Positions 1 to 21,294 of a DNA stretch of 64,000 nt are shown piece after piece. How positions within the stretch are numbered: position 1 is the first letter of the stretch; every line of letters starts with the position of its first letter. A program made the position numbers and the translations under genes. The notes below the pieces were generated by a model. That model saw only the letters and a list, made by a program, of their open reading frames with translations, was not told the origin of the DNA and ran no database searches. The stretch is from Spirochaetia bacterium (GTDB taxonomy: Bacteria > Spirochaetota > Spirochaetia > SZUA-6 > Bin103). The stretch is from positions 1,184,001 through 1,248,000 of the forward strand of contig CBDBOV010000004.1 in NCBI GenBank assembly GCA_965208575.1, written 5' to 3'.

Positions 1-1041
1 CGCGATCACGTTGCCGACCGAACCGGTCTCGTCGAGCTTGGTCACGATCACGCTCTCGTAACCGAATGGCTCGAACTGCCGCACGATCTGCAGCAGGTCG
101 GCTCCCTTCGTGGTCGCGCTTACCACGAGTTGGGTGGTGGCGCCGTGGCCCATCGCATCGAGCACGCTCCGCATCTGTGCGATGCGCGCGTAGTCGGTGG
201 GACTGCGGCCCACGGTGTCGACGAATATGACGTCGGCGTCGCTGCCGAGGGCGATCGCCTTGCGCAACTCATCGGCGGTCTCGGCGGTGGTCACCGGAAT
301 ACGCATGATGTCGCCGTACGTTTCGATCTGCGCTCGTGCCCCGATGCGGTAGTTGTCGATGGTCACGATGCGTACCGGCGGCGCCGGCACACCGTTGCCG
401 AATCCGTGCAGCGCCGCCAGCTTGGCGATCGTGGTGGTCTTGCCGACCCCGGTCGGACCGACCAGGGTGCACACGCGCGGGCCGTCGGCCGGGGCGGGAA
501 GCTGCTGCAGCGGCGGTGCGATCTTCAGCTCCGCGGCAATCTGCCGCACCACGAACCGGTGTACCGCGCCCTGATCCCGCAGGCTGGACACCGGCAGTTC
601 GGTGCGCACCGCGTCGATCAGGCGGCCGCGCATCGGCGCCGCGAAGTCGTTGGCCGCGAGCAGCGCGCGCAACTCGGCGAGGGACGGGTGATCGTCGCGC
701 CGCACGGTCACTTCCGATCCGGGCGGAAGCGATTCGTCCAACCGCTCCCGCAACGCCGCAACCTCGCCGAGCAGCCGGGCAAGACTGGGTGCCTGCTGCG
801 CCCGCGCCGCCTCGCCGGCGACCGCGCGCGGCGCGCCGTCGTCCGCGGGCGGCGTGGTGGCGTCCGGCGGCGTGCCGTCGACGTAACCGGTAATCTCCAC
901 GGCCGGACGCGCGAACAGCCCCAGCACGCCGCCGACGCGAACCGTGCGGTGGGACTGGATGCAGGCGTCGGGGCCGTACTTCCGCATCATCTCCGCCAGC
1001 GCCGCCTGCGAGTTGGCGCCGCGTACCGTGAAATAGCGCAT
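1..1041 (-). CDS. flhF: Flagellar SRP-family GTPase FlhF (runs off window start)
   Basis: Not in ORF track; translated by hand from ATG at 1041: MRYFTVRGANSQAALAEMMRKYGPDA...GGVLGLF...VEITGY; P-loop [28 protein letters not shown]; follows flhA. Confidence 0.93.
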   Translation of the reverse strand, partial: MRYFTVRGANSQAALAEMMRKYGPDACIQSHRTVRVGGVLGLFARPAVEITGYVDGTPPDATTPPADDGAPRAVAGEAARAQQAPSLARLLGEVAALRERLDESLPPGSEVTVRRDDHPSLAELRALLAANDFAAPMRGRLIDAVRTELPVSSLRDQGAVHRFVVRQIAAELKIAPPLQQLPAPADGPRVCTLVGPTGVGKTTTIAKLAALHGFGNGVPAPPVRIVTIDNYRIGARAQIETYGDIMRIPVTTAETADELRKAIALGSDADVIFVDTVGRSPTDYARIAQMRSVLDAMGHGATTQLVVSATTKGADLLQIVRQFEPFGYESVIVTKLDETGSVGNVIA

Positions 1042-1045
1042 CCCC

Positions 1046-3013
1046 TCAGCGCTCCTCTGCCCGGCCGCCCGCGGCGAGTCCCGACACCTCCGCGAGGCGG
1101 CGCACGGAGCGGGCGGCCGCCACCTCGCTGGTCGCCAGGCACACCAGGTCGGGTATGCGGCGCTCGGTACTGCGCTTCACCAGCGGCCGCACTTCCTCGG
1201 AAGCCAACACCGCCGGCCGGCAGTCCTGCCGCGCACTCTGCCCGAGGGTGGCGGCCAACTCCTCGACCCAGCGGCCGAACTCCGCCGCGGCGCCCGGCCG
1301 GAGGTCCTGCCCCGCCTGCGCGGCCAGCAGCTCCCGCTCCAGCTCCGGCGCCAGCGTGACCACGTGCAACACGCCCTGCGCGTCGCTGTGCTGCGCGCTG
1401 ATCTGGCGGCCGAGCGAGCGCCGCACCCGGCGCACCAGGTAGTCCACGTCGCGCTGCCGGCCGGCCTCGTCCGCGAGCGTCTCCAGTATGGTTACCAGGT
1501 CGCGGATCGATACCCGTTCACGCAACAGCCCCTGCAATACCGCGCGGATCTCGCCCACCGACAGCGCCGCGGTGGCCTCTTCCACCACCGTCGGACAGCT
1601 CTCGCGCAATTCGTCGATCATCGCCCGCACCTGGTCGCGGCCGAGCAGTTCCGCCGCGTGACGCATGAGGACGGCGCGGAACTGCCCCACCAGGGTATCC
1701 ACCGTGTCGGAGCAGCCGGCACCGGGACGGCAGCGTCCGCCGCCGGCTTCGACACCGCGAATCTTGAACCGGTACGCGGTGGGCGGAAGCTGCAGGTTGT
1801 CGGTAACGTGCAGCGCCGGCACCTGCAGCCCCCAGTCGCGCGCCGCCCGGTCGCGTACGCCGCGGGCGCCGCGCAGCAGCTCGGCGCCCGCATTCCCGTC
1901 GGTCGCCGCCAGCAGACCGTACCCCAGTTCCAGCGCCAACGCCGGCGGCAGCGCAGGCGCGGCCCCGCCGGCAGGGTTCGGCGCCGCCGTTGCCCCCGCG
2001 TCGGACGTCGGCGGCGCTGCTTCGGTACCAGGATTGCGCCGGCCGACCGCGCGGCCCAGCCCCGCCACCGCGCCGGCCAGCGGCAGCAACAACCAGGGCG
2101 GGAACCCGGGCAGCAGGCCGAGCAGGGCGAGAAAGCCGGCGGTGACGTAGAATGGACGGTCGTAGCGGGCGAGCTGCAGCGCGGCGTCGATCCCGAACGG
2201 CTGGTCCGAGGCGGCGCGCGTAACGATGATGCCGGTGGCGGTGGAGACGAGCAGCGCGGGAAGCTGGGTTACCAGCCCGTCGCCGATGGTCAGTGCGACG
2301 TAGTGATGCGCCGCGGATGCCAGGTCCTCGCCGTGCACGCTGACGCCGATGATGAAGCCGCCGGCGAGATTGACCGCGGTGATGAACAATGCCACCCGCA
2401 CGTTGCCGGCCACGAACTTGGAAGCACCGTCCATGGCACCGTAGAAGTCCGCCTGGCGCTGCAACTCCTGCTGCCGGAGCCGCGCCTGCGCCTCGGTGAG
2501 CCGCCCGGAGTGGTATTCCGCGTCGATCGCCATCTGCCGGCCGGGCAGGGCGTCGAGCGTGAAGCGCGCCGCCACCTCCGCCACCCGGGTCGATCCGCGC
2601 GTAATCACCACCACCTGCACGGCGATGATGATGATGAAGATGATCAGGCCGATCACCACCCCCGCGGTGCCGGAAGATCCGACCACGAAACTGCCGAACG
2701 CGCGCACGATGCGGCCGTCGAAGGCGGCCCCCTGCGACAGGATCAGCCGCGTCGAGGAGACATTGAGCGCCAGCCCGAACACGGTGGCCAACAGCAGCAA
2801 GGTAGGGAAGCTGCTGAACTCGGCGCTGTTGCGCACACTCAGCACGACCAGGATCACCAGCAGGCTGATGCCTATGTTGAGCGCCATGCCGAGGTCGAGC
2901 AGCACGGCCGGCAGCGGAATCAGCAGCATCAGCACCGCGACGCACACGAACACGGCGACCAGCGCGTCGCCGCGCTGCAGCCAGGCGCCGGAGGGATTGC
3001 CGGCCCTGCTCAT
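1046..3013 (-). CDS. flhA: Export gate protein FlhA with an internal deletion in the cytoplasmic domain
   Basis: FSSFPTLLLLATVFGLALNVSSTRLIL, RVAEVAARFTLDALPGRQMAID, FYGAMDGASKFV, LTIGDGLVTQLPALL, ERVSIRDL; start ATG 3013 overlaps flhB stop. Confidence 0.95.
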   Translation of the reverse strand: MSRAGNPSGAWLQRGDALVAVFVCVAVLMLLIPLPAVLLDLGMALNIGISLLVILVVLSVRNSAEFSSFPTLLLLATVFGLALNVSSTRLILSQGAAFDGRIVRAFGSFVVGSSGTAGVVIGLIIFIIIIAVQVVVITRGSTRVAEVAARFTLDALPGRQMAIDAEYHSGRLTEAQARLRQQELQRQADFYGAMDGASKFVAGNVRVALFITAVNLAGGFIIGVSVHGEDLASAAHHYVALTIGDGLVTQLPALLVSTATGIIVTRAASDQPFGIDAALQLARYDRPFYVTAGFLALLGLLPGFPPWLLLPLAGAVAGLGRAVGRRNPGTEAAPPTSDAGATAAPNPAGGAAPALPPALALELGYGLLAATDGNAGAELLRGARGVRDRAARDWGLQVPALHVTDNLQLPPTAYRFKIRGVEAGGGRCRPGAGCSDTVDTLVGQFRAVLMRHAAELLGRDQVRAMIDELRESCPTVVEEATAALSVGEIRAVLQGLLRERVSIRDLVTILETLADEAGRQRDVDYLVRRVRRSLGRQISAQHSDAQGVLHVVTLAPELERELLAAQAGQDLRPGAAAEFGRWVEELAATLGQSARQDCRPAVLASEEVRPLVKRSTERRIPDLVCLATSEVAAARSVRRLAEVSGLAAGGRAEER

Positions 3014-4140
3014 TGCGGCCACCGCACGCCTCCGAAACGCGCGCCGACGCCGGGCTCGCGGCGGTCGCGGCTCGCCGCGCCGTGCGCCGCCAGCATCGCG
3101 GCCACCGCCGGCTCGTACGACCGCGGGATGGGGTCGCCGAGCGCGACGCGGCGAAACAGGGCGCCGGCCAGCGCCGCGCGTTCGATCACGGCCACGCCGC
3201 TCGACTCGGCCGCCTGCCGCATCCGCGGTGCGCTGTCGGCAGCCGCCTTGGCGACCACCACCGGCGCGGTCATGGTGTCGGGGTCCCACCGCAAGGCCAC
3301 CACGGTACGCGCCGCGTCGGCGCACACCACGTCCGCGGCCGCGACCTGCTCGGCGGCCGTGCGCGCGAGCAGTGCGCGCGTGCGGGCGCGCAACCGATCG
3401 CGCACCATCGGGTCGCCCTCCTGCAGGCGCCGTTCCTCGCGCTCCCGTGCCACCGAACGGTGCGCCCGCCGGCGGGCGCGGAAATTGCGCAACAGGTAGT
3501 CGGCCGCCGCCAGCAGCAACAGGGCACCCGCCGCCTGCACGGCCAGGCGCAGCGCCGCGCCGTACGCCGCCTCGGCCATGGCTGCGCCGGCCGCGATCGC
3601 GCGCAGCGCGGCGCCGATGTTGAGCACCGCGATCACCGCCACCCCGCCCACCTTGAGCAGTTCCCGGCCGAGGCCGATCGCGGTGTCTGCCGACCACAGC
3701 CGGCGGCCGACGCGTCCCCAACTCGGGGTGATGCGGTGCCAGCGCGGCGTCACGCTTCGCAACCTGATCGGCAAACCTTGCTGGACGAGATGTCCGGCCA
3801 CGGCGCCCGCGATCGCTGCCGCCAGCAGCGGCGCCGCCAGCCGGCCCGCATGGCCGAGCGCCGCCGGCAGCAGGCCGGCCAGCGCGGCGGCGTCGCCCGC
3901 GGCCGCCACGCGACCGAAGCACAGGCGCAGCAATTCGCCGCCGGCGGCGGCGATGGCGGGGCCGGTCAGCGCCGCCGCGCCAATCCCGGCCAGCAGGATC
4001 ACCGCCGCGGTCACCTCCGGCGAGCGCACCGGCTCGGCGGAGTCGCGGGACGCACCGGCGCGCGCAGCGGACGCGCGCAGCCGATCGTCGGCGCCGGCCC
4101 GCCCGCCGCCGACGAGAGCGGACCGGAACGCGCCGCTCAC
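3010..4140 (-). CDS. flhB: FlhB-like export gate protein, divergent, no NPTH motif
   Basis: SPEV near N-terminus, ELLKV, EGDP, ADVV...VALRWD...MTAPVVVAK, LAGALFRRVALGDPIP; lies between fliR and flhA. Confidence 0.9.
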   Translation of the reverse strand: MSGAFRSALVGGGRAGADDRLRASAARAGASRDSAEPVRSPEVTAAVILLAGIGAAALTGPAIAAAGGELLRLCFGRVAAAGDAAALAGLLPAALGHAGRLAAPLLAAAIAGAVAGHLVQQGLPIRLRSVTPRWHRITPSWGRVGRRLWSADTAIGLGRELLKVGGVAVIAVLNIGAALRAIAAGAAMAEAAYGAALRLAVQAAGALLLLAAADYLLRNFRARRRAHRSVAREREERRLQEGDPMVRDRLRARTRALLARTAAEQVAAADVVCADAARTVVALRWDPDTMTAPVVVAKAAADSAPRMRQAAESSGVAVIERAALAGALFRRVALGDPIPRSYEPAVAAMLAAHGAASRDRREPGVGARFGGVRWPQ

Positions 4141-4970
4141 GGCACCGCTCCCGCGCCCGCCGGCGGCGTGGCCGTCAGCCCGTCCAGCATCCGGCGCAGC
4201 GTGGCAAAGCCGTCGTCGAGCGCCGCCGCGGCGGCGCTCAGCAGCAATGGCAGCGTGACCAGGAGGATCACCAGGCCGGCGCCGAGCGACAACGGCAGCC
4301 CCAGCATGAGCAGGTTCATGTGCGGCGCGACGCGCGCGAGCAGGGCAAGCGCGAGTGACACCAGCAGCAGTGCCGCGAATATCGGCAGCGCGATCGCCAT
4401 GGCGGTGCCGAACAGGCGCGCAAGGCTGCCCGCCACGGTGTGCAGCAGCAACCCGGCGCCGCGGCCCGTGCCGGCCGCGAAGCTCACCACCAGGTCGGCG
4501 GCGCGCAGGGCGTGAAAGGAACCCGCCACGCCGTCGAGCATCAGCCGGTGCAGTCCGCCCACCGACAGGAACGCCATCACGGCGAGCACGTGGAACAACT
4601 GGCCCAAAAGCGGAGAACGGCCCGCGGTGAACGGATCGAGCAGCTCGACCACGCCGAACCCGACGGGCAGCGAGATGAACGCGCCGGCGGTCTGCAGGGC
4701 GGTGAACCCCAGGAGCACCAGGAAGCCGAGCAGCACACCCACGAGCGCCTCGCCGAGCAGCAGCAACGCGAACTGTACCCCGGACGCCGGTACCGGGTAG
4801 CCGCCGGCGATCACCCCGGGCAGCGCTACCACGGCGATGAACAGCGCCAGCCCCAACCGCCCCGGTTGCGGAATGGCCGCCGACGAGAACAGCGGCGCCA
4901 CCTGCATCATCGCCACCACGCGCGCCAACACCAGCAGCCCGATCCCCAGGTCATCGGCAAGCAGCCGCAT
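4137..4970 (-). CDS. fliR: Export gate protein FliR
   Basis: LARVVAMMQVAPLFSS, GEALVGVLLGF, DPF, LARVAPHMNLLMLGLPL; lies between fliQ and flhB. Confidence 0.93.
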   Translation of the reverse strand: MRLLADDLGIGLLVLARVVAMMQVAPLFSSAAIPQPGRLGLALFIAVVALPGVIAGGYPVPASGVQFALLLLGEALVGVLLGFLVLLGFTALQTAGAFISLPVGFGVVELLDPFTAGRSPLLGQLFHVLAVMAFLSVGGLHRLMLDGVAGSFHALRAADLVVSFAAGTGRGAGLLLHTVAGSLARLFGTAMAIALPIFAALLLVSLALALLARVAPHMNLLMLGLPLSLGAGLVILLVTLPLLLSAAAAALDDGFATLRRMLDGLTATPPAGAGAVP

Positions 4971-5245
4971 CACGGCCTCGCCGCCATGGCCGGGATGCTC
5001 TCGAACAACCGGGTAGTGAAGTCGATCATCGACGCCCCCAGCCACGGGCCCAACAGCAGGGCGACCCCGATGACCGCAAAGATCTTCGGCACGAAGGACA
5101 GCGTCTGCTCCTGGATCGAGGTGGCAGCCTGCACGATCGACACCACGAGCCCCACCAGCACGCTCGCCACCATCAGCGGCGCCGCCAGCACGAGGAGCTG
5201 CAGCACCGCCTCGCGCGCCAGGGTCACGACGGTACCGAGCGTCAT
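4970..5245 (-). CDS. fliQ: Export gate protein FliQ
   Basis: VGLVVSIVQAATSIQEQTLSFVPKI signature. Confidence 0.96.
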   Translation of the reverse strand: MTLGTVVTLAREAVLQLLVLAAPLMVASVLVGLVVSIVQAATSIQEQTLSFVPKIFAVIGVALLLGPWLGASMIDFTTRLFESIPAMAARP

Positions 5246-5256
5246 CGCCGCCGCCA

Positions 5257-6102
5257 TCAGCGGAAACTCTCGATCAGTTGCATGACCAGCAGATCCCAGC
5301 CATCGACCAGTACGAACAGCACCAGCTTGAACGGCAGCGAAATGAGCACCGGGGGAAGTACGATGATCCCCATCGAGATCAGCGTGGTGGCCACCACCAT
5401 GTCGATGATCACGAACGGAATGAATATGAGCACGCCTATTTTGAATGCCACGGTGAGCTCATGCAGAATGAACGCCGGGATCAGGATGTAAGTGGGCACG
5501 TCGGCGCGCGTGTTCGGCTTGGGCAGATCGCGCATGCTCATGAACAGGCGGATGTTGTCGGCGTCGTTGCCGAGCTGGCGAAACATGAATTCGCGTACCG
5601 GGGCCTGGGCGCGTTGCAACAGCTCCTGCCCGTGCAGCTCGCCGCGCGAGAACGGCTGCAGGGCGTCGCGGTTGATCGCCTCGAAGGTCGGCCACATGAT
5701 GAACGCGGTCAGAAACAGGGCTACGCCCATCAACACCTGGTTGGGCGGCATGTCGGTGAGCGAAAGCGCGCGCTTCACGAACTGCAGCACGATGGCAAGG
5801 CGCAGGAACGAGGTAGTCAGGATCACGATCGACGGCGCCAGCGACAGCACCGCGAGCAGCAGCAGCAACTGCAGCGACAGCGCCAGCTCCTGATTGGTGT
5901 ACGCGTCGCGCAGGCTGAGGTCCAGGAACGGCACGCTGCTGACGGCCGGCGCCGCGGCGGCTGCGATGCCCGCGGCCGCGGCAGCCGCCGCGTCGGGCGC
6001 GGGCGCCGGCGTCTGCGCCGCCACCGGGGCGGCGATGAGCAACGCCGCGCACAAGGCCGCGCCGGCGGCAGCACGGCGGCGCAGGATGCTAGGTAGCCGC
6101 AC
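5257..6102 (-). CDS. fliP: Export gate protein FliP
   Basis: LSLAPSIVILTTSFLR, PPNQVL, IPAFILHELTVAFKIG, ISLPFKLVLFVLVDGW; probable GTG start at 6102 after GGAGGAAGAGG; signal-peptide-like N-terminus. Confidence 0.96.
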   Translation of the reverse strand: MRLPSILRRRAAAGAALCAALLIAAPVAAQTPAPAPDAAAAAAAGIAAAAAPAVSSVPFLDLSLRDAYTNQELALSLQLLLLLAVLSLAPSIVILTTSFLRLAIVLQFVKRALSLTDMPPNQVLMGVALFLTAFIMWPTFEAINRDALQPFSRGELHGQELLQRAQAPVREFMFRQLGNDADNIRLFMSMRDLPKPNTRADVPTYILIPAFILHELTVAFKIGVLIFIPFVIIDMVVATTLISMGIIVLPPVLISLPFKLVLFVLVDGWDLLVMQLIESFR

Positions 6103-7036
6103 GGACCTCTTCCTCCACCGCCGGGGTGCGGCCCAGGCGGCGCGCGCGATCCCGTTGGCGGGGCGCCCGATCACCCAGGCGGCGCGCTCGATCCCGTTGG
6201 AGGGGCGCCCGATCCCGTTGGAGGGGCGCCCGATCCCGTTGGAGGGGCGCCCGATCCCGTTGGAGGGGCGCCCGATCCCGTTGGAGGGGCGCCCGATCCC
6301 GTTGGAGGGGTGCCCGATCCCGCTGGAGGGGCGCCCGATCACCCAGGCGGCGCGCCCGCTCCCGCTGCCGGCGCAGGAACGCGGTGTGGCCGGAGTCCGC
6401 GCTGCGCGCATCGGAGGGCGTGCCGATGCCGGCCTCGGCGAGCAGGTCGGCAAACCGGCTGCGCGCGGAAGCGCCCTGCCCGGCGGGGTGCGCCGCGAGC
6501 CGATCGAGGCGCTCGGGATCGGTGATCTCGGCCACCAGGTTTACCGCCTGGTCGCCGGCTCCCACCAGGTAGTAGCCGCCGGCCGCACGCACCAGGTGCA
6601 GGCTGCGGTTGCCGCCGAGCGAACGCGAACCGAGCACGGCGATCAGCTCGCTGTTGCCGAGCCGGCCCGCGGCGCCGCGCCGGAAGAGCCGGAACAGCAG
6701 GTAGATCGCGCCGAGCACCGCGGCAAGCACCACCACCATGCGCACGAAGTCGCCGGTCGAGACCACGCCGCCGGCCGCGGCGCCGGAGGTGCGGCCGGCC
6801 TCGGGCAGCGGCGTCGCGTCGACCGGCGGCGCGCCGGCAACCGACGCCTGTGGCTGCGGTTGCGGCTGCTGCGCGGACAACGGACACACCGCGACCAGCA
6901 GCGCGCCCGCGATCAGCAGCGCCGGAGCACCGATGGCAGAGCGCCGCGCACGCTTGGTCGAAGCGCGGGCGGCTGTCGCGTTGTACAGGTCTGTTCCCCT
7001 CCCAGGAACGCAGCCTTGCGTCCTTTCCTTCGCCAT
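6089..7036 (-). CDS. fliO: FliO (spirochaete FliZ) with a C-terminal heptad repeat expansion; start uncertain
   Basis: TM segment DFVRMVVVLAAVLGAIYLLFRLFRR then VLGSRSLGGNRSLHLVRAAGGYYLVGAGDQAVNLVAEI; directly upstream of fliP. Confidence 0.85.
   Translation of the reverse strand: MAKERTQGCVPGRGTDLYNATAARASTKRARRSAIGAPALLIAGALLVAVCPLSAQQPQPQPQASVAGAPPVDATPLPEAGRTSGAAAGGVVSTGDFVRMVVVLAAVLGAIYLLFRLFRRGAAGRLGNSELIAVLGSRSLGGNRSLHLVRAAGGYYLVGAGDQAVNLVAEITDPERLDRLAAHPAGQGASARSRFADLLAEAGIGTPSDARSADSGHTAFLRRQRERARRLGDRAPLQRDRAPLQRDRAPLQRDRAPLQRDRAPLQRDRAPLQRDRAPLQRDRARRLGDRAPRQRDRARRLGRTPAVEEEVRAAT
6147..6356. repeat. Compound 21-bp tandem repeat, 10 units (7 consecutive CGATCCCGTTGGAGGGGCGCC-type units at 6189-6335)
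   Basis: Read directly; unit A encodes DRAPLQR and unit B (CGATCACCCAGGCGGCGCGCT) encodes DRARRLG on the minus strand. Confidence 0.97.
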
Positions 7037-7044
7037 CGCCGGCG

Positions 7045-7953
7045 CTATCGGTCTCTCCCCCCGGAGTCAAGAATCTCCGTGACCCGGATGCCGTAACTGT
7101 CTTCCAATGCCACGACCCGCCCGCGCGCGACCGGCTCGCGGTTCATCTCGATCGCGACCGACTGGCCGGCGAATCGACTCATGCCGATTACCATGCCCTC
7201 GTCGAGGGCGGGCGCGCCGCCGCTGCGCAGCCCGCCGGCGCCCAGTTCAACGGTCACCATGGCATCGGCGCGAGCGGCGCGCGACGGTCGCGGCGGCGCC
7301 ACTTCGCGGGCCAGCAAGCGGTGGCCGATCGCCGCCAGACTTGCCTCCGCCACCGCCAGGTACAGTTGGCCCTCCTGTCCGCCGGCGGCCGCCGCGAAGG
7401 TGGCGCACACCAGCCGGGTGTCCGGCGCCGGCAGTTCGGTGGTGTCGGCCTGCCGCTCGAGGTACTCGAGGCGCGGTACGACGCCGCACACCGGCGCCCA
7501 CGCGCGCTGCAGGTCGGGCAGCAGCGCCGCGATGCCGCGCCGCAGCACCATGCCCTCGATCTCGCTCAAGCCGCGCTCCGGCACCATGGGTACGCCGCGC
7601 CCGCCCAGCAGCCGGTCGATCAGCAGGAATGCAAGCACCCGGTCGACGGCAAACAGCGCCGCCCCCGGCAGCGGGTCGAGCGCCACGCCCGCCAGCGCCG
7701 CCGGCGCCCACCGGGCTCGCAGTTCACTGCATGACCGGCGCTCCGCCGCGGCAAGCCGAACCCGGCACGGCGTGCGCACGAGCGTGCTGAGCGACTCGGA
7801 GGCGAAGCGCGCGAATCGGCGATGTACCGCGCTCACGATGGCGACCTGCTCGCCGGCCAGCGGCCCCGCGCCGGACGGCAAACCGCCGGGGGGCATACTG
7901 CCGGACGGCATACTGCCGGACGACCAGCGGTCATGCGGCACGCCCTCACCCAT
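7045..7953 (-). CDS. fliM: C-ring protein: FliM middle domain fused to a FliN-type SpoA domain; start uncertain
   Basis: VHRRFAR...LSTLVR, DPLPG, IDRLLGGRG, RGLSEIE, AWAPV (FliM); C-terminus VTVELG...AGQSVAIEMNREPVARGRVVALEDSYGIRVTEI (FliN-like). Confidence 0.85.
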   Translation of the reverse strand: MGEGVPHDRWSSGSMPSGSMPPGGLPSGAGPLAGEQVAIVSAVHRRFARFASESLSTLVRTPCRVRLAAAERRSCSELRARWAPAALAGVALDPLPGAALFAVDRVLAFLLIDRLLGGRGVPMVPERGLSEIEGMVLRRGIAALLPDLQRAWAPVCGVVPRLEYLERQADTTELPAPDTRLVCATFAAAAGGQEGQLYLAVAEASLAAIGHRLLAREVAPPRPSRAARADAMVTVELGAGGLRSGGAPALDEGMVIGMSRFAGQSVAIEMNREPVARGRVVALEDSYGIRVTEILDSGGRDR

Positions 7954-8080
7954 CGGCGCCCCCGGCGCCCGGCCGGCAAGGCGCGACGAATGCGCACACC
8001 GGTGGTACGCGAGCGGGGAGCAACGCAGCCAGCCGGGAGGGATCGCCGCGTTCATGCAGCCGGAGTTGCGCCATCGGCTG

Positions 8081-9718
8081 CTAGTCCTCGACCAGCCACC
8101 GGCGCAGCGCGCGCGCCGCGTCTTGCGGTCGCCGGCGGGCCAGGTGCTCGGCGCTGCGGCGCATCTGCTCCTGGTCCGCCAGGCCACCCGGTCTCCCGGT
8201 CCCGAACACCCGCGTCGCGCTGCTCAAGCGCGCCGTGCCGCCGGCGGCGCGCGCCGCCCGGCGGCGGCGCTGCCGCCGGCGCACCACCACGACCAGGGCG
8301 AGCAGCAGCAGCGCGGCGGCCGCCGCGGCGGCCGCCGGCAACATGCTCAGCAGCCATGCCTCCCGGCGCAGCAGCACGTCTTCCTGCGCGAACTGACTGC
8401 TGCGGTCGAACTGCAGATGCTCCACCGTGACCGAGTCGCCACGCTGCCGGTCCCAGCCGATGGCGTCCTGAACCAGCAGCGTCGCCTTGCGCAACTCGTC
8501 GCCGGGAACCGGGGTGTACGTGCGCCGCACGCTGCCGTCCTGGTTCAGGGCGACGCCGCCGTCGGGCCGGAACTCGGTGCGCCACACGCCGTCGAGGGCC
8601 ACGCTCACCGTGATGCGGTTGATCGCCCAGGGGCTCTCCTCGCGCACCGTGTTGCGCCGGTTCACCACCTCGCTGCGGCTCGTCGAGCGGCGCTCGTAGT
8701 GCTCGCCGGCAGCGCCGTCGCCGCTGCTCCTGGTCTCCGTCTCCTCGTCCTCGGCGACCGTGATCGAGGGCACCCGCAGCGCTTCGTCGGCGTCGGTGAG
8801 CGGATCGTCCTCGCGCAAGGCGATCGGGAAATGCTCCTCCGTGGTGGTCGACTGCGAAGACAGGTCGAGGTCGATGTCGAGGCGGACGATCTGCACCCGG
8901 TCGGCGGAGAAGATATTGCCGAGGGCGGCGACGATTTCCCGCGTGTAGCGCTGCTCCAAGCCGTACTTGGTATCCAGTTGGCGCTCCACCAGGGTCATCC
9001 GGCTGCGTCCCGAAACGCCGCCCGGATCGTTCACCTGGACGCCGCGAGGATCGAGGATCACGATGTGCTCGGCGCTCAGGCCGGCCACCGCAAACTGTAC
9101 GAGCCGCTGGATGCCGTGCACCCGATGGTGGTCGTCGAGAATCCCGGAGCCCTGGCGGGGCGTTATCACGATGGAAGCGGTGGTAGGGAGTTGATCCTCC
9201 GCGAACAGTTCGCGTTCCGGCACTACCAGGGTGACGTGGGCGGCGGCGACGTCGTCGAGCGCCTCGAGGTGCTGTTCGAGGCTGCGCGTGAGGGCGCGCT
9301 GAAGGTTGACGCTGCGTTCGAAGTCGGTGACCGAGAATCGCCCGAGGTCGAATATCGAGAACGGGTCGGTTTGCGAGGGTACCAGGTCTTCGCGAATCAG
9401 GATGCCGCGCAACCGGCGCGCCGAGTCCTGGTCGGACACGAAGATGCGGTCACCGGCGCGGATTTCGTACTCCACGCCTTCCTGATCGAGCCGGCCGGCG
9501 ATGCGCAGCAGTTGCCCGGCGTCCTCGACGGGGGCATTGATCAGTGGCACCATCCGCACACCGGCGTTCAATGGCCCGCCCTCGCGTGATGCCCCGATCA
9601 ACCCAGCGGCGACCACCGCGACGGCGAGCGCGCCGCCGAGCGACCAACGCTGCGCCCCGGTCAATCTGCCCCAAAAGCCAAACGCCTGTTGCCGCATACG
9701 CGGCAGTACGTCGAGCAT
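8081..9718 (-). CDS. fliF: MS-ring protein FliF
   Basis: DPFSIFD...TDFERSVNLQRAL, HLEALDDV, FAEDQLPTTASIVITP, GIQRLVQFAVAGL, RITVSVALDG, AIGWDRQRGDSVTVEHLQFDR, C-terminal RRWLVED; RBS GGAGGGG before ATG 9718. Confidence 0.95.
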   Translation of the reverse strand: MLDVLPRMRQQAFGFWGRLTGAQRWSLGGALAVAVVAAGLIGASREGGPLNAGVRMVPLINAPVEDAGQLLRIAGRLDQEGVEYEIRAGDRIFVSDQDSARRLRGILIREDLVPSQTDPFSIFDLGRFSVTDFERSVNLQRALTRSLEQHLEALDDVAAAHVTLVVPERELFAEDQLPTTASIVITPRQGSGILDDHHRVHGIQRLVQFAVAGLSAEHIVILDPRGVQVNDPGGVSGRSRMTLVERQLDTKYGLEQRYTREIVAALGNIFSADRVQIVRLDIDLDLSSQSTTTEEHFPIALREDDPLTDADEALRVPSITVAEDEETETRSSGDGAAGEHYERRSTSRSEVVNRRNTVREESPWAINRITVSVALDGVWRTEFRPDGGVALNQDGSVRRTYTPVPGDELRKATLLVQDAIGWDRQRGDSVTVEHLQFDRSSQFAQEDVLLRREAWLLSMLPAAAAAAAALLLLALVVVVRRRQRRRRAARAAGGTARLSSATRVFGTGRPGGLADQEQMRRSAEHLARRRPQDAARALRRWLVED

Positions 9719-9795
9719 GTTCCCCTCCCACGGCACGGATCGACTTGCCGCCGCCGCAGGGTAGACGGCCGCGGACAAGCCCTTCCGGTACCATA

Positions 9796-15155: not shown

Positions 15156-16328
15156 TCAGGACGAGGCCGCCTCGCCGCCGCGGCGGTTGCGCAGCACCGT
15201 CGGCACGCTCAGGTCGTCGAGCGAGGTGGCGCGCGAACTGGCCACCGGCTCGTGCTGGCTCAGCACGTCGGCGCGCTTTCCGAGCCCTTTGTTGAGCTCG
15301 ACCCACTCGTGGTACGAGATGATCTCGGGACTGGAGTCGGAGCTGTCGGCGACCGCGGCGGCGCCCTCGCGCTGGAACCCGGTGGCGATCACCGTGACGC
15401 GGATCTCGTCGTCGAGCGTATCGTTGATACTGGTTCCGCAGATGATCATGGCATCGTCCGAAGCACTGGTGGTGATGATCTGCAGCACCTCCTCGTACTC
15501 GGTCAGCGACATGCCGTCGTCGCCGGTAACGTTGACCAGGATGCCGCGCGCACCCTCGATGCGGGCGTCTTCGAGCAGCGGGTTGTTGATGGCGTTGGTC
15601 GCCGCGTCGACGGCGCGGTTGTCGCCGCCGCCGATGCCGATGCCCATCAGCGCATCGCCCTGGCCCTGCATGATGGTGCGCACGTCGGCGAAGTCGATGT
15701 TGATGACGCCGGGCACCGTGATCAGGTCGGAGATGCCTTGCACACCCTGCCGCAGCACGTCGTCGGCGAGCATGAACGCTTCCCGCAGCGGCGTGCGCCG
15801 CTCCACGATCTTCAGCAGATGCTGGTTGGGAATCACGATCAGGGTATCCACTTCCTTGCGCAGGCTCTCGATGCCCTCATCCGCGAGGCCCATCTTGCGG
15901 CGCCCCTCGAAGTCGAACGGCTTGGTCACCACGGCGACGGTAAGTATGTCGTGCTCGCGGGCGGTGCGCGCGATCACCGGGGCCGCACCGGTGCCGGTGC
16001 CGCCGCCGAGGCCGGCCGTGATGAACACCATGTCCGCACCCTTCAGGACGTTCTCGATCGAACCCTGGTCCTCAAGCGCCGCCTTTTCGCCCATCTCCGG
16101 TATGCCGCCGGCGCCGAGACCGGCGGTGAGCTTGCTGCCGATCGGCACCTTGGTCTCCGCATGGCACAGATCGAGCGCCTGCAGGTCGGTGTTCACGGCA
16201 ACGAAGTGTACGTTGCGCAGGCCCGACTCGATCATCCTGTTGGTGGCGTTGTTGCCACCGCCCCCGACGCCGATCACCTTGATGTCGGTGATCCCCGGAG
16301 TGTGCTCGTTGTGCAGTTCAAACGTCAT
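15156..16328 (-). CDS. ftsZ: Cell division protein FtsZ
   Basis: [26 protein letters not shown] tubulin motif, INIDFADV, C-terminal DLSVPTVLR. Confidence 0.99.
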
Positions 16329-16380
16329 GGTTCCCCTCCCGTTACGTTTGGCCTAGTCGTGTCTCGCCGGAGATTCCTGT

Positions 16381-17619
16381 TCAGAAGAATTCCCCGAACC
16401 ATTTCCTCATGCGGGCCCACACGCTGGTGAATCCCGCTTCGCTGGTATCCAGATTGAGTTGCTCGACCCCCAGGTGGGCGGCGCCATACTGCACCAGTCC
16501 CACTCCGGTGGCGAAAATGGGACTGTGGTATTCCTCCACCAGTCCTCCGAGGCGCGCCGGATAGCCGATGCGTGCCGGCAGGCCGAAGATCTCCGATGCC
16601 AGTTCCTCGGTGCCCGGCAGCAGCGACCCGCCGCCGGTCATCACCACGCCGCCGGCGAGGCGCGACAGGTAGCCGGCGCGCTCGATCTGCGTGCGTACGC
16701 TGCCGAGCATCTCCGACATGCGCGGTTGAATGATCTCGGTCAGTTCGCGGCGCGTGATGATGCGCGGTGGACGCCCGCCGACCCCCGGAATGCTGGTTTC
16801 CGCATCGGGCTCATCGAGCATCGGCAGAAAGCAGCAGCCGGCGTCGCGCTTGACCTGCTCCGCGGCCTCGTTGGGCGTGCGCAGCATGATCGACAGGTCG
16901 CTGGTCACGTGGTCGCCGCCGACCGCAAGCACCTCGGTGTGATAGGGAGACCCCTCGATGTGCACCAGCACGTCGGTGGTGCCGCCGCCGAGATCGACCA
17001 GCAGCACGCCCAGCTCCTTCTCGTCGTCGGTCAGCACGGAACGCGCGGAGGCGAGCGGTTCCAGCACAATGTCGCTGACCTTGAACCCCGAGCGATTGAC
17101 GCACCGGATGATGTTCTGCGCCGACGACACCGCGCCGGTCACGATGTGTACTTCCGCCTCCAGGCGCACGCCGGTCATGCCCAGCGGACTGCGGATGCCG
17201 GCCTGACCATCAACGATGTACTCCTGAGTGATGACATGCAGCACCTCGCGGTCCATCGGGATCACGATCGCGCCGGCCGCTTCCTTGACGCGGTCGATGT
17301 CGTCCTGGTCGATCTCGCGCTTCTTGCCGGTAACGGCCACCACGCCGCGCGAGTTGACGCTCTCGATGTGGCCGCCCGCAATGCCGGCGTAGACGTCCTG
17401 CACCTCGCGCCCGGACATCATCTCGGCCTCTTCCACCGCCGCCGCGATCGACTTGACCGTGGCGTCGATGTTGATCACCACGCCGCGCCGCAGCCCGCGC
17501 GACGGTGTGATGCCGACGCCGGTAATCTCGAGACTGCCCTGCTCACCGATCTGGCCGATGATGACGCACACCTTGGTCGTGCCGATGTCGAGGCCGACAA
17601 TCAGATCGTCAGTCGCCAT
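16381..17619 (-). CDS. ftsA: Cell division protein FtsA
   Basis: VGLDIGTTK, GVRLEAEVHIVT, EPLAS, DLGGGTTD, TGGGS, amphipathic C-terminus WFGEFF. Confidence 0.98.
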   Translation of the reverse strand: MATDDLIVGLDIGTTKVCVIIGQIGEQGSLEITGVGITPSRGLRRGVVINIDATVKSIAAAVEEAEMMSGREVQDVYAGIAGGHIESVNSRGVVAVTGKKREIDQDDIDRVKEAAGAIVIPMDREVLHVITQEYIVDGQAGIRSPLGMTGVRLEAEVHIVTGAVSSAQNIIRCVNRSGFKVSDIVLEPLASARSVLTDDEKELGVLLVDLGGGTTDVLVHIEGSPYHTEVLAVGGDHVTSDLSIMLRTPNEAAEQVKRDAGCCFLPMLDEPDAETSIPGVGGRPPRIITRRELTEIIQPRMSEMLGSVRTQIERAGYLSRLAGGVVMTGGGSLLPGTEELASEIFGLPARIGYPARLGGLVEEYHSPIFATGVGLVQYGAAHLGVEQLNLDTSEAGFTSVWARMRKWFGEFF

Positions 17620-18539
17620 CAGCCGCTCCCCTCGGCAACCGCCACCGGGGAGGCGCCGCGCAAGTCGAGCTCGGCGAACTGCGCCATGGCGCCCTCCGCG
17701 GACCGGGTGCGCACCAGGTCGAGCAGCACCAGTGCCTCCGCCAGGTGGCTCTCGTTCAACTCGGGGCCGAAGCGCAGCACGGTGTCGAAACCGATCGGAA
17801 ACAAGAGCAGGTCGAATCCGGCGGCGATCGCTTCGGCGCCGAGCGGGGCGGCGGTCGACGGCGCGCCGATCGGCACCAGCCGGATCTCGGAGATCAGGGT
17901 GGCGAGCACCGGATCCGACGCCGTCAGCGCGGACAGGTCTGCAAGCACGCCGCACACCGGTTCCGGAAGGTGTGCGCCCGGCTGCAGCAGTTCCGCGGCC
18001 AGTCCGCTCAGCGCCGGCACGTCGGCGGCGTCGTGGTGTCCCCACGGCGCGACGCCGGCCAGAAACACCAGGCCGTCCCGGTCGACCAGCGCCGCGCGCG
18101 AGGAGCCGTCCGGTTCCACCGCCAGCAGCACCGCCGCCGCCGTGCGCGCCGCAAGATCGAGGCGCAGCGTGTCCGGGAAGCGCATCGACACGGCGGCGTC
18201 GCGCACGAGCAGGTTCTGCTCCAGGCGCGCTTCAATGGCGGCCGCGTCCAGCGAGAAAAACTGTTCGTCGCCGGTAAGCCCGGCCATCGCCAGCACCTCC
18301 GCGTCGCTCAATGCCAGTTCGGTGGCCACGTTCACGGTAGTCAGGTGCAGGCGCGGCGCCAGCAGCAGGAGGAACACCGCCTCCAGGGCCAGCATCAGCA
18401 GCAGCGTGGCGATGACGAGTCTCAGCACGCGCCGCATGCGCGCGCGCCACGGGTGCAACCGGCGCGCCAGCCAGCCCCGCTGCGCACCGCTCAGCGTGCC
18501 GCTGCCCGGCAGATTGGCGCCTTGCGCAACGGTGCTCAC
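17619..18539 (-). CDS. ftsQ: Cell division protein FtsQ/DivIB
   Basis: Single TM then POTRA-like region ending FPDTLRL; ELDLRG near C-terminus; lies between ftsW and ftsA. Confidence 0.82.
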   Translation of the reverse strand: MSTVAQGANLPGSGTLSGAQRGWLARRLHPWRARMRRVLRLVIATLLLMLALEAVFLLLLAPRLHLTTVNVATELALSDAEVLAMAGLTGDEQFFSLDAAAIEARLEQNLLVRDAAVSMRFPDTLRLDLAARTAAAVLLAVEPDGSSRAALVDRDGLVFLAGVAPWGHHDAADVPALSGLAAELLQPGAHLPEPVCGVLADLSALTASDPVLATLISEIRLVPIGAPSTAAPLGAEAIAAGFDLLLFPIGFDTVLRFGPELNESHLAEALVLLDLVRTRSAEGAMAQFAELDLRGASPVAVAEGSG

Positions 18540-19891
18540 AGTTGCTCCACTCCCCCGCCCCGGTCGTTCTGCCGTACCGACAGGCGCTCCGCGTCCACCT
18601 CCGCCGATCGCCGCGACAGCCCCACCAGCAGCCCGCACATGACGAACGTGGTCAGCAGCGCCGACCCGCCCGACGAATAGAACGGCAGCGGCAGCCCGGT
18701 CGCGGGCACCAGGCTCGACACCACGGCCAGGTTGAGAAACGCCTGGGCGACGATGCTGGTGGTAAGCCCGAACGCCAGGTAGCGGGCGAACCGGTCGCGG
18801 TGATGGCGCACGATCAGGTAGCCGCGCCACGCCAGTACCGCGAACAGGCCCAGGATCAGGATGACGCCGACCAGGCCGAGCTCCTCTCCCGCCACCGCGA
18901 AGATGAAGTCGGAGTGCGCCTCCGGCAGGGGACCCAGCTTCATCTGTCCGCGCCCGATGCCGGTGCCCCACACGCCGCCGCGCGCCAGCGCGTCACGGGC
19001 GGCCAGCACCTGGTAGCCGCTGCCGGCGGGGTCCGCCGTCGGCTCCAGGAAGGCGATCAGGCGCAGCACGCGGTGCTCCTTGGTCAGCAGCAGCATCAGC
19101 GCGAGCGGCGTGCCGGCCATGGTCAGAGCGGCGAACAGGCCCATTCTCACCCCCGCCAGCCACAGCATGGCCATGGCCAGGAACACCAGGAAGATGGGCG
19201 TCGAAAAGTCGTTCTGCAGGTACACCAGCGCGGCGAACAGGCCCGCAACCAGCATCGGCGGAACGATCACCCGCATGGTGCGGCCGTAGCTGAGCTCGGC
19301 CAGGTTGCCCTTGCGATCGAGAATGTGGGCGAGGTACACCACCAGCGCCAGCTTGGCGAGTTCCGACGGCTGGAACGACAGTCCGCCGATCACGATCCAG
19401 CGCTGCGCCCCCATCGCCCACAGCCCGATGCCGGGCACCGACGTGAGCACGACCAGCGGCAGGCTGACCGCCACCAGCGGCAGCACCGCGCGGCGCACGT
19501 AGCGCAGCGGAACGGAGGCGGCAACGGTGGCCAGCAGCGTGCCGAGCGCGACCCACAGCACCTGGCGGCGAAAGAAGCGCAGCGGATCGTCGAACAGCCG
19601 GTCACCGTAGAAGTAGGACGCGGACAGCAGTACCGCGAGACCGCTGCCGGTGAGCACGATCAGCGCCGCCACCAGCACGCTGTCGCTCGGCATGGCCAGG
19701 GTCGGCTGCAGCGTGTCGCGCAGCCGCACCCAGCGGGTCCGCACCGTCCGCCGCCGGCCGGACGGCCGCTGCGCCAGCATGAGGCGGCGCAGGACGCGCG
19801 GCAGGTGCGTAACCTTGACGGATGGCTGCGCCATGCGCTGCGCTTGCGGACGCCCGCCGTTCACTACCGGTGCCATCGCCGATACCGTCAC
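18536..19891 (-). CDS. ftsW: SEDS protein FtsW (start approximate)
   Basis: GAQRWI, FQPSELAK, GSGYQ, LPEAHSDFIFAVAGEELG, PATGLPLPFYSSGGS. Confidence 0.95.
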   Translation of the reverse strand: MTVSAMAPVVNGGRPQAQRMAQPSVKVTHLPRVLRRLMLAQRPSGRRRTVRTRWVRLRDTLQPTLAMPSDSVLVAALIVLTGSGLAVLLSASYFYGDRLFDDPLRFFRRQVLWVALGTLLATVAASVPLRYVRRAVLPLVAVSLPLVVLTSVPGIGLWAMGAQRWIVIGGLSFQPSELAKLALVVYLAHILDRKGNLAELSYGRTMRVIVPPMLVAGLFAALVYLQNDFSTPIFLVFLAMAMLWLAGVRMGLFAALTMAGTPLALMLLLTKEHRVLRLIAFLEPTADPAGSGYQVLAARDALARGGVWGTGIGRGQMKLGPLPEAHSDFIFAVAGEELGLVGVILILGLFAVLAWRGYLIVRHHRDRFARYLAFGLTTSIVAQAFLNLAVVSSLVPATGLPLPFYSSGGSALLTTFVMCGLLVGLSRRSAEVDAERLSVRQNDRGGGVEQL

Positions 19892-21294
19892 GCCGCCTGC
19901 AGCGGCTCCACCAGCCGGTCGAGCGCGACGCCGCGCGAGCCCTTGAGCAGCACGGTGTCGCCGGGGCGCACCGATGCAACCACCGCCGCCTCCAGCTCCT
20001 CGTAGAGCGTCGTCCACAGCAGCGGCCGGCCGAAGCCGGCGGCCTGCAGGGCATCCGCGGTAGCGGCGGTTTCCGCCCCGAACAGGAACACGGCATCCGG
20101 GTCGACGGCCGTGACCACCTCGGCCAGCGCGGCGTGGGCGGCCCGCGTCGCGGTGCCGAGTTCCAGCATGCTGCCGAGCACCACCAGGACGCGCCCGCGA
20201 CCGGGCAATTCGGCGAGGAAGGTGAGCGCGGCCGCCATCGACTCCGGATTGGCGTTGTACGCATCGTTGATGATGGTCAGCCGCCCGCGGACAACCTGCG
20301 AGCGGCCCGCCACCGCCTCCACGGCCTCGATGCCGTGCTTGATAGCGGCCGCCGACACTCCCAGGGTAGACGCCACCGTGATTGCGGCCAGCACGTTGGT
20401 GACGTTGTGATTGCCAAACAGAGGGAAGTGAATCTGGAGCCCCTCCCAGTGGATGGTGGAACCATCAAGCCCCAGAGATTCACTTCCCTCGTAACCTTTC
20501 GTCTTGGTTGGGCCGAATTGGACCAGCGCAACTTCCGGTGCCAACGGCAGCCGGGAGTGCGCCAGCAACTCCTCCCCTTCCGGCACGAATGCGTGCCCGC
20601 CGCGCGGCAGGTAGGCCAGCACGCGCGCCTTCTCGGCGGCTATGGTGGGCCGCGATTCGAACGCGGCCAGGTGTGCGGTGCCGATGCCGGTGATCAGCGC
20701 GTGGTGAGGCGCCGCCAGCCGGCCCAGCTCGTCCATCTCGCCGCGGTAGTCGATGCCCAGTTCCAGCACCGCCATGCGATGGCGCCGCTCGATGCCCAGC
20801 AGCGCCAGCGGCAGCCCGATCACCGAGTTGTAGTTGCGCTGTGCCTCGTAGGTCGGCGCGCACTGTTGCAGGATCGACGCGAGGATGCGCCGCGTGGTGG
20901 TCTTGCCGCTCGATCCGGTCACCGCCACGCGCTGCGCCGCGCTGTGCGATCGATGTGCCTCGGCGAGCCGATGCAGCGCCTGCAGCGGGTCGTCCACCAC
21001 GGCCAGCGTGGCGCCGTAGCGGCTCGCTGTGGCCTGCAGCTCGGCGCCGCGCGCGTACCACTGCCGCCGCGCTATGAGGGCGGCGGCGGCGCCCGCTGCG
21101 AACGCGTCGGCCAAGTAGTCGTGGCCGTCGGCGCGGCTTCCGGCCAGGGCCACGAACAGCGCGTCGGCGGCCGCGGCGCGCGAGTCCACGACCACCCGGC
21201 GCAACGGCGCCTGCGCAGCCGCCAGCGGCCCCCGGTCGGAGCCGACAAGCCGCGCGCCGGTGAGCCCGGCGAGTGCTTCGGTGGTCACCGTCAC
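19888..21294 (-). CDS. murF: UDP-MurNAc-tripeptide D-Ala-D-Ala ligase MurF
   Basis: DSR, DGHDY, AVTGSSGKTTT, NYNSVIGLP, DAYNANPESM, GSMLELG, LLKGSRG. Confidence 0.96.
   Translation of the reverse strand: MTVTTEALAGLTGARLVGSDRGPLAAAQAPLRRVVVDSRAAAADALFVALAGSRADGHDYLADAFAAGAAAALIARRQWYARGAELQATASRYGATLAVVDDPLQALHRLAEAHRSHSAAQRVAVTGSSGKTTTRRILASILQQCAPTYEAQRNYNSVIGLPLALLGIERRHRMAVLELGIDYRGEMDELGRLAAPHHALITGIGTAHLAAFESRPTIAAEKARVLAYLPRGGHAFVPEGEELLAHSRLPLAPEVALVQFGPTKTKGYEGSESLGLDGSTIHWEGLQIHFPLFGNHNVTNVLAAITVASTLGVSAAAIKHGIEAVEAVAGRSQVVRGRLTIINDAYNANPESMAAALTFLAELPGRGRVLVVLGSMLELGTATRAAHAALAEVVTAVDPDAVFLFGAETAATADALQAAGFGRPLLWTTLYEELEAAVVASVRPGDTVLLKGSRGVALDRLVEPLQAA

Follow-up and report, generated by a model that had tools for sequence, protein, structure and literature searches.

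A spirochaete flagellar operon reduced to its membrane parts, with an FlhB that lacks the Asn-Pro autocleavage motif

What is a flagellar export gate kept for when the FlhB in it has lost its autocleavage motif? This question is raised by a window of 64,000 nucleotides from a Spirochaetia bacterium (GenBank assembly GCA_965208575.1, contig CBDBOV010000004.1, positions 1,184,001 to 1,248,000 of the forward strand), the whole stretch of DNA analysed here, in which flhB encodes DAAR at the place where the loop NPTH is expected. A first-pass annotation, made from the letters alone, had described a gate that lacks a specificity switch, builds no filament and stays in rod/hook mode. In this study, the window and its genome (G000; 95% complete, 6 contigs) were compared with related genomes. 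With high confidence, we regard the locus as a relic core with an uncleavable FlhB, and the comparisons suggest that the relic probably still functions. On balance, the sequences favour a conserved remnant of the flagellar type III export gate, without ATPase, rod or switch, that is likely kept for a role other than motility; that it works as an exporter is put forward tentatively.

The autocleavage loop of FlhB

The gene and its loop are placed as follows.

3010..4140, minus strand: flhB, 376 amino acids (aa), predicted uncleavable variant (Pfam PF01312, E 1e-54; AlphaFold2 model; translation)
3307..3318, minus strand: DAAR, the four codons where the NPTH autocleavage loop is expected, residues 275-278 (translation, alignments, strain variants)
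3283..3336, minus strand: ADVVCA, DAAR and TVVALRWD, that is, strand beta-1, loop and strand beta-2 of the FlhB C-domain (DSSP on the model)

The 376-codon open frame (3010-4140, minus strand) translates to a protein containing EGDPMVRDRLRARTRALLARTAAEQVAAADVVCADAARTVVALRWDPDTMTAPVVVAKAA, and 3283-3336 translates to ADVVCADAARTVVALRWD. Pfam Bac_export_2 (FlhB/YscU, PF01312) matched residues 23-351 to profile positions 7-333 of 335 (186.5 bits, cut-off 24.4), and a frameshift was ruled out because this near-full-length match runs in one uninterrupted stretch. In HMMER alignments to solved FlhB chains, DAAR faces NPEH (12du_A) and NPTH (36hu_K1) gap-free; the replacement of NPTH by DAAR at 3307-3318 was thereby borne out, with coordinates and flanks exact. 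As read from the coordinates, the GTG start of flhB overlaps the fliR stop (GTGA), and the flhB stop overlaps the flhA start (ATGA).

How unusual the change is was judged against the 150 best representatives out of 1.84 billion proteins (151 sequences with the query). Asn-Pro occupied the first two loop positions in 140 of these 151, and the loops comprised NPTH (86), NPVH (12), NPTE (11), NPTR (5) and others; among the 139 nearest cluster representatives, Asn was kept in 94% and Pro in 96%. Since positions 3 and 4 vary naturally, the near-invariant part is, by these alignments, Asn-Pro and not all four letters, and both of its residues are replaced in the G000 FlhB. The annotated near-invariance of NPTH therefore holds for the first two positions and fails for the last two. 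Six FlhB representatives of other lineages also lack the Asn (P0014, P0088, P0122, P0132, P0135 and P0145, with the loops GASG, GPSG, DATE, DGTR, SPRE and DGGS, respectively), and their sequences suggest that the same loss possibly occurred elsewhere. An FlhB-based pattern scan across the genome collection gave only two distant proteobacterial loci, both with NPTH.

Public sequencing runs were consulted for the reading itself. Runs labelled sponge metagenome, from two studies, match the window stretch with word shares of 0.65, 0.29 and 0.20. A contig of run X1, possibly the window's own source sample, is identical to the window across 2900-4044. Three other runs cover the motif and read DASR (3312 C>A; X3 and X4) or DSAR (3315 C>A; X6), with Asn-Pro in none. 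Independent contigs with the same Asn-Pro-less site rule out a mis-assembly at the motif; the annotation had already set aside a single sequencing error, since all four residues differ.

The loss extends across the genus. We use g1 for the genus of G000, g2 for its sister genus, both in family f1, and f2-f8 for other families of the same order. FlhB was matched in nine of the ten other g1 genomes, and Asn-Pro was present in 0/9 (0/10 with G000), the nine loops being DAAR, DPAR, DAAR, AAAR, HGER, HGGR, DGRR, HGER and GGAR. Homologues without NPTH, for which the annotation had proposed a search, are the rule in every g1 genome with an FlhB match. In f2-f8, Asn-Pro is kept in 17/17 genomes (NPTH in 16, NPVH in one). 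A collection of 5.8 billion proteins added 29 clusters at 90% identity related to the G000 FlhB, of which 28 lack Asn-Pro; the fourth position is Arg in 27 of these 28.

Judged from the residues present, cleavage by Asn cyclisation, as known, cannot occur with Asn changed to Asp and Pro to Ala. Cleavage by another chemistry, for instance at Asp, would let the switch persist, and many g1 loops do begin with Asp, with Asp-Pro in G007. However, the first position is also Ala, Gly or His within the genus, positions 1-3 vary even among strains, unlike a catalytic site, and the searches found neither FliK nor a late substrate for which a switch would be of use; we consider this alternative scarcely credible.

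The fold around the loop appears to be preserved. An AlphaFold2 model built on 140 sequences had a mean predicted local distance difference test (pLDDT) score of 87.9, with 93-97 in the C-domain, and showed the domain plan of the family, an N-terminal helical membrane domain followed by a C-terminal alpha/beta cytoplasmic domain. DSSP assigned a strand to residues 271-275, a loop to 276-278 and a strand to 279-284. Foldseek matched the model to the C-domains of YscU, EscU and FlhB and to the FliPQR-FlhB entry 6s3l. The best matches were uncleaved single-chain mutants of YscU, EscU and a chlamydial homologue (target TM scores 0.73-0.93; root-mean-square deviation about 1 Å across about 92 residues). 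Among 49 alignment columns conserved at ≥85%, 39 are kept in the G000 FlhB; the ten changed columns include T274A, N275D and P276A at the loop and, in the linker, M228R and E232R. The N-terminal cytoplasmic motif of FlhB is degenerate in the G000 subclade.

Evans et al. reportedly described, in 2013, a four-residue docking pocket for early subunits on FlhB. We take the Salmonella residues A286, P287, A341 and L344 to be this pocket, which would receive the gate-recognition motif of early (rod/hook) subunits, and the residues aligned to them are unchanged in G000 (A292, P293, A347 and L350). The FlhB mutant N269A is non-cleaving and stays in early mode. According to the available portions of the cited papers, the gate-recognition motif binds a surface hydrophobic pocket on the FlhB C-domain (PMC8983047); EscU N262A shows no cleavage and P263A partial cleavage, and uncleaved EscU forms fold and permit apparatus assembly and low-level secretion (PMC3189125).

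A flagellar operon reduced to parts in or on the cytoplasmic membrane

Around flhB, the following genes were found.

1..1041, minus strand: flhF, signal recognition particle (SRP)-type GTPase, first 347 of 412 codons, continuing past the window start (Pfam SRP54; 39% to FlhF of the flagellated relative G037)
1046..3013, minus strand: flhA, 655 aa, membrane domain highly conserved (Pfam FHIPEP, 1.8e-190)
4137..5045, minus strand: fliR (Pfam Bac_export_1, 1.3e-51)
4970..5257, minus strand: fliQ (Pfam Bac_export_3, 2.5e-27)
5257..6453, minus strand: fliP open frame, FliP domain at residues 199-393 (Pfam FliP, 7.3e-71; 65% to G037 FliP)
6089..7036, minus strand: fliO open frame, start uncertain (Pfam FliO, 2.7e-12)
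7045..8187, minus strand: fliM open frame with a FliN-like C-terminal domain (Pfam FliM, 7.4e-24; FliMN_C, 5.1e-08)
8081..9778, minus strand: fliF, MS-ring protein, first gene of the relic operon, directly downstream of hslU (Pfam YscJ_FliF and YscJ_FliF_C; 41% full-length to G037 FliF)
L002:18798-19610, just outside the window downstream of flhF: FliA-type sigma factor

The genes fliP/Q/R-flhB-flhA are encoded together, in the order fliO-P-Q-R-flhB-flhA. The true fliP start lies probably further downstream than that of its open frame, and the likeness of the fliM frame to its relatives starts near residue 100. FlhA matched the chain 12dv_B (E 6.5e-155; query 431/444 aligned to chain 436/491), and its cytoplasmic domain is about 45 residues shorter than that of this solved spirochaete-like homologue. 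Past the window start, flhF is followed by genes for the FliA-type sigma factor, for a DUF6115 protein and for two LysM-M23 peptidases. The genes upstream of fliF are hslU, hslV, xerC, dprA, that of a second integrase-family recombinase and a cell-division cluster.

Relatives of the same order from seven other families carry a full flagellar operon. In G037, it begins dprA-topA-xerC-hslV-hslU-flgB-flgC-fliE-fliF-fliG-fliH-fliI-fliJ-orf-fliK-flgD-flgE-motA-motB and continues fliL-fliM-fliN/Y-fliO-P-Q-R-flhB-flhA-flhF-flhG-orf-fliA-fapA-...-cheW-cheA-cheY, where fliL is our reading of an open reading frame spanning two loci, not scanned with a profile. The FlaA sheath family was found in 5/5 such flagellated relatives and in 0/14 control genomes, which identifies the lineage as spirochaetal.

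The 38 proteins of the G037 operon were searched against the whole G000 genome using tblastn. Besides housekeeping neighbours, only FliF (41% identity), FliG (47%), FliM (30%), FliO (33%), FliP (65%), FliQ (57%), FliR (43%), FlhB (31%), FlhA (48%), FlhF (39%), FliA (73%) and DUF6115 (25%) gave matches. FlgB, FlgC, FliE, FliH, FliJ, FliK, FlgD, FlgE, MotA, MotB, FliL, FapA, CheA and CheW were not found; the FliN/Y query gave just a 47-residue match inside the fliM frame, and the FlhG query weak ParA-like matches only. Profile searches of G000 likewise gave no match for flagellin (PF00669), the rod/hook N-terminal family (PF00460), FliE (PF02049), FliK (PF02120) or secretin (PF00263), and no export ATPase FliI above the cut-off (best TIGR01026 match 225.9 bits against 379.5); the two sub-cut-off TIGR01026 matches with scanned surroundings fall in a V-type ATPase operon. 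The gene fliG stands on a different contig, among unrelated neighbours, and encodes all three domains; its product is the orthologue of the operon-encoded FliG of the relatives (about 49% identity), whose second copies reach 25-30%.

The window is thus shown to hold the remnant of a spirochaete flagellar operon, reduced to parts in or on the cytoplasmic membrane. Three other assignments were rejected in the course of this census. A second flhB is excluded by the single PF01312 match in the genome. The two MotA_ExbB (PF01618) matches are each followed by ExbD, one also by TonB_C, and tblastn gave no match for MotA/MotB, so they are no stator. An injectisome is countered by the lack of a secretin match, by the flagellar M-ring C-terminal domain of the ring protein, by the presence of FliM, FliO and FlhF, and by synteny and orthology to the flagellar operon of the relatives.

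The lack of axial genes extends beyond G000. Flagellin and rod/hook families are present in 17/17 genomes of f2-f8 and in 0/22 f1 genomes besides one outlier, G002. Four g1 genomes without flagellin or rod/hook genes (G001, G007, G009 and G010) are single contigs, and incompleteness is therefore not the explanation for the absent axial genes. All five g1 loci that cover the complete stretch share one gene order, xerC-hslVU-fliF-fliM-fliOPQR-flhBA-flhF-fliA-DUF6115-M23-M23, and G009, G005 and G008 are collinear with it up to the limit of the DNA compared. In a sample of the phylum, FliP and FliE were each found in 296/301 genomes, which makes an export core without axial parts unusual. Four of the 300 other spirochaete genomes (G150, G185, G285 and G288) have FliP with no FliE match and may hold a divergent FliE or further reduced systems; FliE is an imperfect marker.

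These results bear on what the annotation had concluded. Its gate without a specificity switch that builds no filament agrees with the genome, where no second FlhB, FliK or flagellin was found; a second flhB and fliK had been named there as the genes to look for. The model that follows from it, a working basal body and hook with the gate fixed in rod/hook mode, like a natural polyhook mutant, did not hold. Non-cleaving FlhB/SctU mutants do stay early (EscU N262A, PMC3189125), N269A of FlhB among them, and the residues aligned to the presumed docking pocket are kept. Yet rod, hook, FliE, FlgD and FliK were not found in G000, and 22 of the 23 other f1 genomes gave no rod/hook family match. As the rod/hook genes are missing from the matches, there would be no early flagellar substrates to export, and this model is very improbable. 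With rod, hook, FliE, FlgD, FliI/H/J and stator not found, the genus as a whole has cut the flagellum back to its membrane export core; the motif loss is one sign of this and did not itself bring about a flagellum without a filament.

Selection, stepwise trimming and the possible role of the remnant

Whether the remnant is maintained was assessed from intact frames and from omega. In the eight g1 loci compared, every relic gene finds a collinear counterpart, and neither stops nor frame breaks were noted, barring the FliN-like frame of G003/G005 and flhA of G009/G010; frames are intact at synonymous distances up to about 1. FliP is about 85% identical across the genus, and its Pfam scores (1e-70 to 1e-72 in g1) resemble those of flagellated kin (1e-70 to 1e-75). 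Omega was estimated by the Nei-Gojobori method between G000 and the g1 members G006, G007, G001, G008 and G003 (not every gene in every locus), in a genome of about 88% G+C at third codon positions with strong codon bias, so that the absolute values below are rough.

fliF, fliQ, fliR, flhA, flhF: omega about 0.16-0.33
fliP: omega 0.16-0.46
flhB: omega 0.43-0.73
fliM, fliO: omega 0.43-0.70
hslU (neighbour): omega 0.06-0.12
fliA (neighbour): omega 0.03-0.08

Four phylogenetically independent sister pairs gave FlhB omega values of 0.26-0.47 (bootstrap 95% upper bounds 0.36-0.76) and, for the C-domain core (residues 262-352), 0.20-0.39 (upper bounds 0.63-0.75). Judging from these comparisons, purifying selection acts on the relic genes, and they have stayed intact. 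In three flagellated pairs, omega of FlhB was 0.10-0.16 over the whole protein and 0.04-0.075 in the C-domain; FlhA had 0.04-0.11. Constraint on the FlhB C-domain has thus weakened several times over, and a part that is the most constrained in flagellated kin ranks as average here, yet constraint is still present.

A further stage of trimming is seen in the sister genus. Three of the 13 g2 genomes (G011, G012 and G015) keep a smaller relic, xerC-hslVU-fliF-fliO-P-Q-R-flhB'-flhA-fliA, in which FlhB (261-280 aa) ends just past the linker, about 15 residues short of the NPTH position, and retains its last few residues (WP and one more) and the overlap junction with flhA. FliG in these genomes (open frames of about 194-221 codons) consists of residues 11-189 only, the ring-binding N and middle domains, and its torque-generating C-domain is gone; fliM and flhF were not found in the three. 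The FlhB deletions are clean, in frame and domain-wise. The order of trimming is cytoplasmic sorting and torque parts first, membrane core last. FliA is present in 13/13 g2 genomes, 67-69% identical to that of G000, including ten without gate genes. Because it is kept in these ten, FliA must have a job other than the flagellum or the gate, and its persistence was rejected as support for a function of the relic. FliA is also the most constrained gene of the region, and it is 73% identical to the FliA of a flagellated relative with 42% GC.

Several observations weigh against a maintained remnant with a role of its own. Besides the roughness of the omega values and the high values of fliM and fliO, constraint is relaxed relative to the flagellated pairs, by 3-4 times in omega for FlhB and about 4-8 times for its C-domain, and part of the relic system may be sliding towards loss. 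FlhA has about 460 aa rather than 655 in the complete genomes G009 (L043) and G010 (L042), a sign of erosion; the C-terminal part of its cytoplasmic domain is gone there, with flhF directly after. FliP, FlhB and FliG gave no match in the other 10/13 g2 genomes, so that loss of the whole relic is tolerated. The stop/start overlaps could select for open frames as such, keeping flhA translated, although frame upkeep of this kind would not explain conserved residues. The outlier G002 (same genus label; 81% complete, 510 contigs) differs in carrying flagellin, flgB and flgC; it shows the ancestral dprA-topA-xerC-hslVU-flgB arrangement with topA in place (L051-L054), gave no FlhB, FliP or FliA match, and its HslU is 72% identical to that of G000, compared with 81-94% in other g1 members. 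Either G002 is a flagellated member that branches basally, or its bin is mixed. A substrate was not identified either: a scan of 6.5 Mb with a sigma-28 promoter pattern gave one match in its strict form and 19 in a loose form, and no readable regulon, and the public runs listed for the locus include no RNA runs. Since neither rod nor secretin was found, the gate would have no route beyond the periplasm.

Much of this would also be expected of a functionless leftover operon that has yet to be erased, with the NPTH loss one of many random changes. Omega is 2-8 fold above flagellated kin, FlhA is truncated in G009 and G010, domains are deleted in three g2 genomes and all but fliA is lost in 10/13, and the N-terminal motif of FlhB is degenerate in the G000 subclade. 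However, apart from the frames excepted above, the eight g1 loci are intact at synonymous distances up to about 1, the bootstrap upper bounds of omega lie below 1 in four independent pairs, FliP scores like that of working flagella, and the g2 deletions are clean, in frame and domain-wise. We consider neutral decay unlikely. Because the genes are intact, syntenic and under purifying selection genus-wide, the remnant probably still assembles and acts.

The retained set comprises the MS ring (FliF), C-ring pieces (FliM and FliG), the gate (FliO/P/Q/R, FlhB and FlhA), the placement GTPase FlhF and the sigma factor FliA, whereas none of the exported or force-generating parts was found, namely rod, hook, filament, cap, the ruler FliK, the ATPase FliH/I/J, stator and chemotaxis genes. 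FlhB would stay one uncleaved chain, as studies of homologous mutants suggest, and the hook-to-filament switch is gone because nothing is left to switch between. MS ring, FliG, FliM and the FliPQR-FlhB-FlhA gate would assemble into one complex. ATPase-less Salmonella mutants can export on the proton-motive force alone. In the mechanism that we prefer, the gate would run on the proton-motive force in the same manner, permanently in an 'early-type' docking state, and would pass one or few non-flagellar proteins into the periplasm at low throughput. A working minimal type III exporter of this composition (MS ring, FliG/FliM, FliOPQR, uncleaved FlhB and FlhA), driven by the proton-motive force only and delivering cargo into the periplasm of a sponge symbiont, is a possible but tentative proposal.

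Almost as likely as export is that the ring-and-gate complex has a structural or polar-landmark role. Such a non-secreting scaffold would mark the pole or the division site together with FlhF, FliF and FliG, with FlhB as a structural part only. FlhF, FliF, FliG and FliM are all kept in g1; all that survives of FliG and FlhB in g2, namely the N and middle domains with which FliG binds FliF and the membrane domain of FlhB, is relevant to assembly; and the operon lies near cell-division (ftsZ/A/Q/W) and M23 peptidase genes. However, g1 still shows constraint on the C-domain of FlhB and on the cytoplasmic domain of FlhA, neither of which a mere scaffold would need, and this role in its pure form is a doubtful, though serious, candidate.

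Relation to known systems

The G000 FlhB shares with canonical flagellar FlhB (Salmonella; spirochaete FlhB, PDB 12du; PF01312) its family, its length, its place between fliR and flhA, the plan of membrane domain, EGDP linker and a C-domain beginning with beta-1, loop and beta-2, and the residues aligned to the presumed docking pocket. It differs in the replaced Asn-Pro, in selection on the C-domain that is about 4-8 times weaker, in the degenerate N-terminal cytoplasmic motif, and in a genome where no FliK, hook or filament genes were found. Engineered non-cleaving mutants (EscU N262A/P263A; YscU N263A, P264A and N263D; FlhB N269A) are altered at the same two positions, and uncleaved crystal structures of such mutants are the best fold match; unlike them, the G000-type change is natural, fixed genus-wide across the divergence of hundreds of strains, and without known substrates.

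Flagellin-less retention of flagellar export genes is already known from Buchnera and Lysobacter. Buchnera retains the rod, the rings, part of the hook and FliI. Buchnera aphidicola, according to the available portion of PMC8109811, is a symbiont without flagellin that keeps basal-body and export genes, for which a protein-export role has been proposed. G000 resembles it in lacking flagellin and keeping export genes, and differs in that rod, hook and ATPase were not found. In the accessible part of PMC7688988, Lysobacter enzymogenes OH11 is described as non-flagellated, with its remaining FlhA, FlhB and FliPQR expressed and exporting non-flagellar proteins; it keeps FliI, FlgD and probably the hook-basal body, and NPTH is not mentioned in that paper. 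The two share a conserved gate without flagellin, whereas the G000 relic is more reduced. Sphaerochaeta, as the consulted part of PMC3372971 has it, are non-motile spirochaetes without any motility genes or penicillin-binding proteins. They too gave up periplasmic flagella, but the G000 lineage kept the export core. A parallel with their loss of penicillin-binding proteins was rejected, as three transpeptidase-family genes lie elsewhere in the G000 genome. Literature searches on flagella of sponge spirochaetes brought up nothing of relevance, and an octocoral paper (PMC12522431) treats the flagella of Vibrionales only.

Neither a natural NPTH-less FlhB nor a relic of this kind came up in the literature searches, which is not proof of absence. 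What appears to be new is how far the reduction goes, together with the natural loss of the autocleavage motif across a clade and the domain-by-domain series in the sister genus. Within the reach of these searches, the only published work on FlhB/SctU without autocleavage concerns engineered mutants, whereas in g1 the loss is fixed throughout a genus. The graded series, from full flagellum to a core with uncleavable FlhB, to a core without the FlhB C-domain, to nothing, shows which components of the export gate are kept or lost as a unit. It speaks for a structural place of the FlhB membrane domain in the gate and for a C-domain that serves the ordering of substrates. Persistence of the gate under selection long after all known substrates are gone points to a second job. 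The lineage also adds non-flagellated spirochaetes from sponge metagenomes, distinct from the total loss in Sphaerochaeta. If the minimal exporter is real, it would come close, in nature, to the simple gate that presumably gave rise to flagella and injectisomes, and would form, together with g2, a stepwise deletion series of dispensable parts: the FlhB C-domain, the FliG C-domain, FliM and FlhF.

A few minor observations concern the surroundings of the relic genes. The relocated fliG (L050, G000:C5:1149001-1169000) lies about 3 kb from the V-type ATPase operon and adjoins an insertion sequence (IS)-type DDE transposase gene. In G000, topA is likewise on contig C5, having left the place between dprA and xerC that it has in relatives. 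The FliN-like domain is in one frame with FliM in G000; in G003 (L041) and G005 (L044) it lies in another frame, about 300-380 bases past the FliM domain, and may be a separate gene there. The cell-division cluster (window 15156-22985) reads mraZ-mraW-(one Mur ligase)-ftsW-ftsQ-ftsA-ftsZ, with ftsI, mraY and murG not between. The G+C of the window is 0.66-0.76; around flhB (loci L014-L037), G+C spans 0.42 to 0.72 across the families of a single order, with the flagellum-less family at the high end and some flagellated families at 0.63-0.67.

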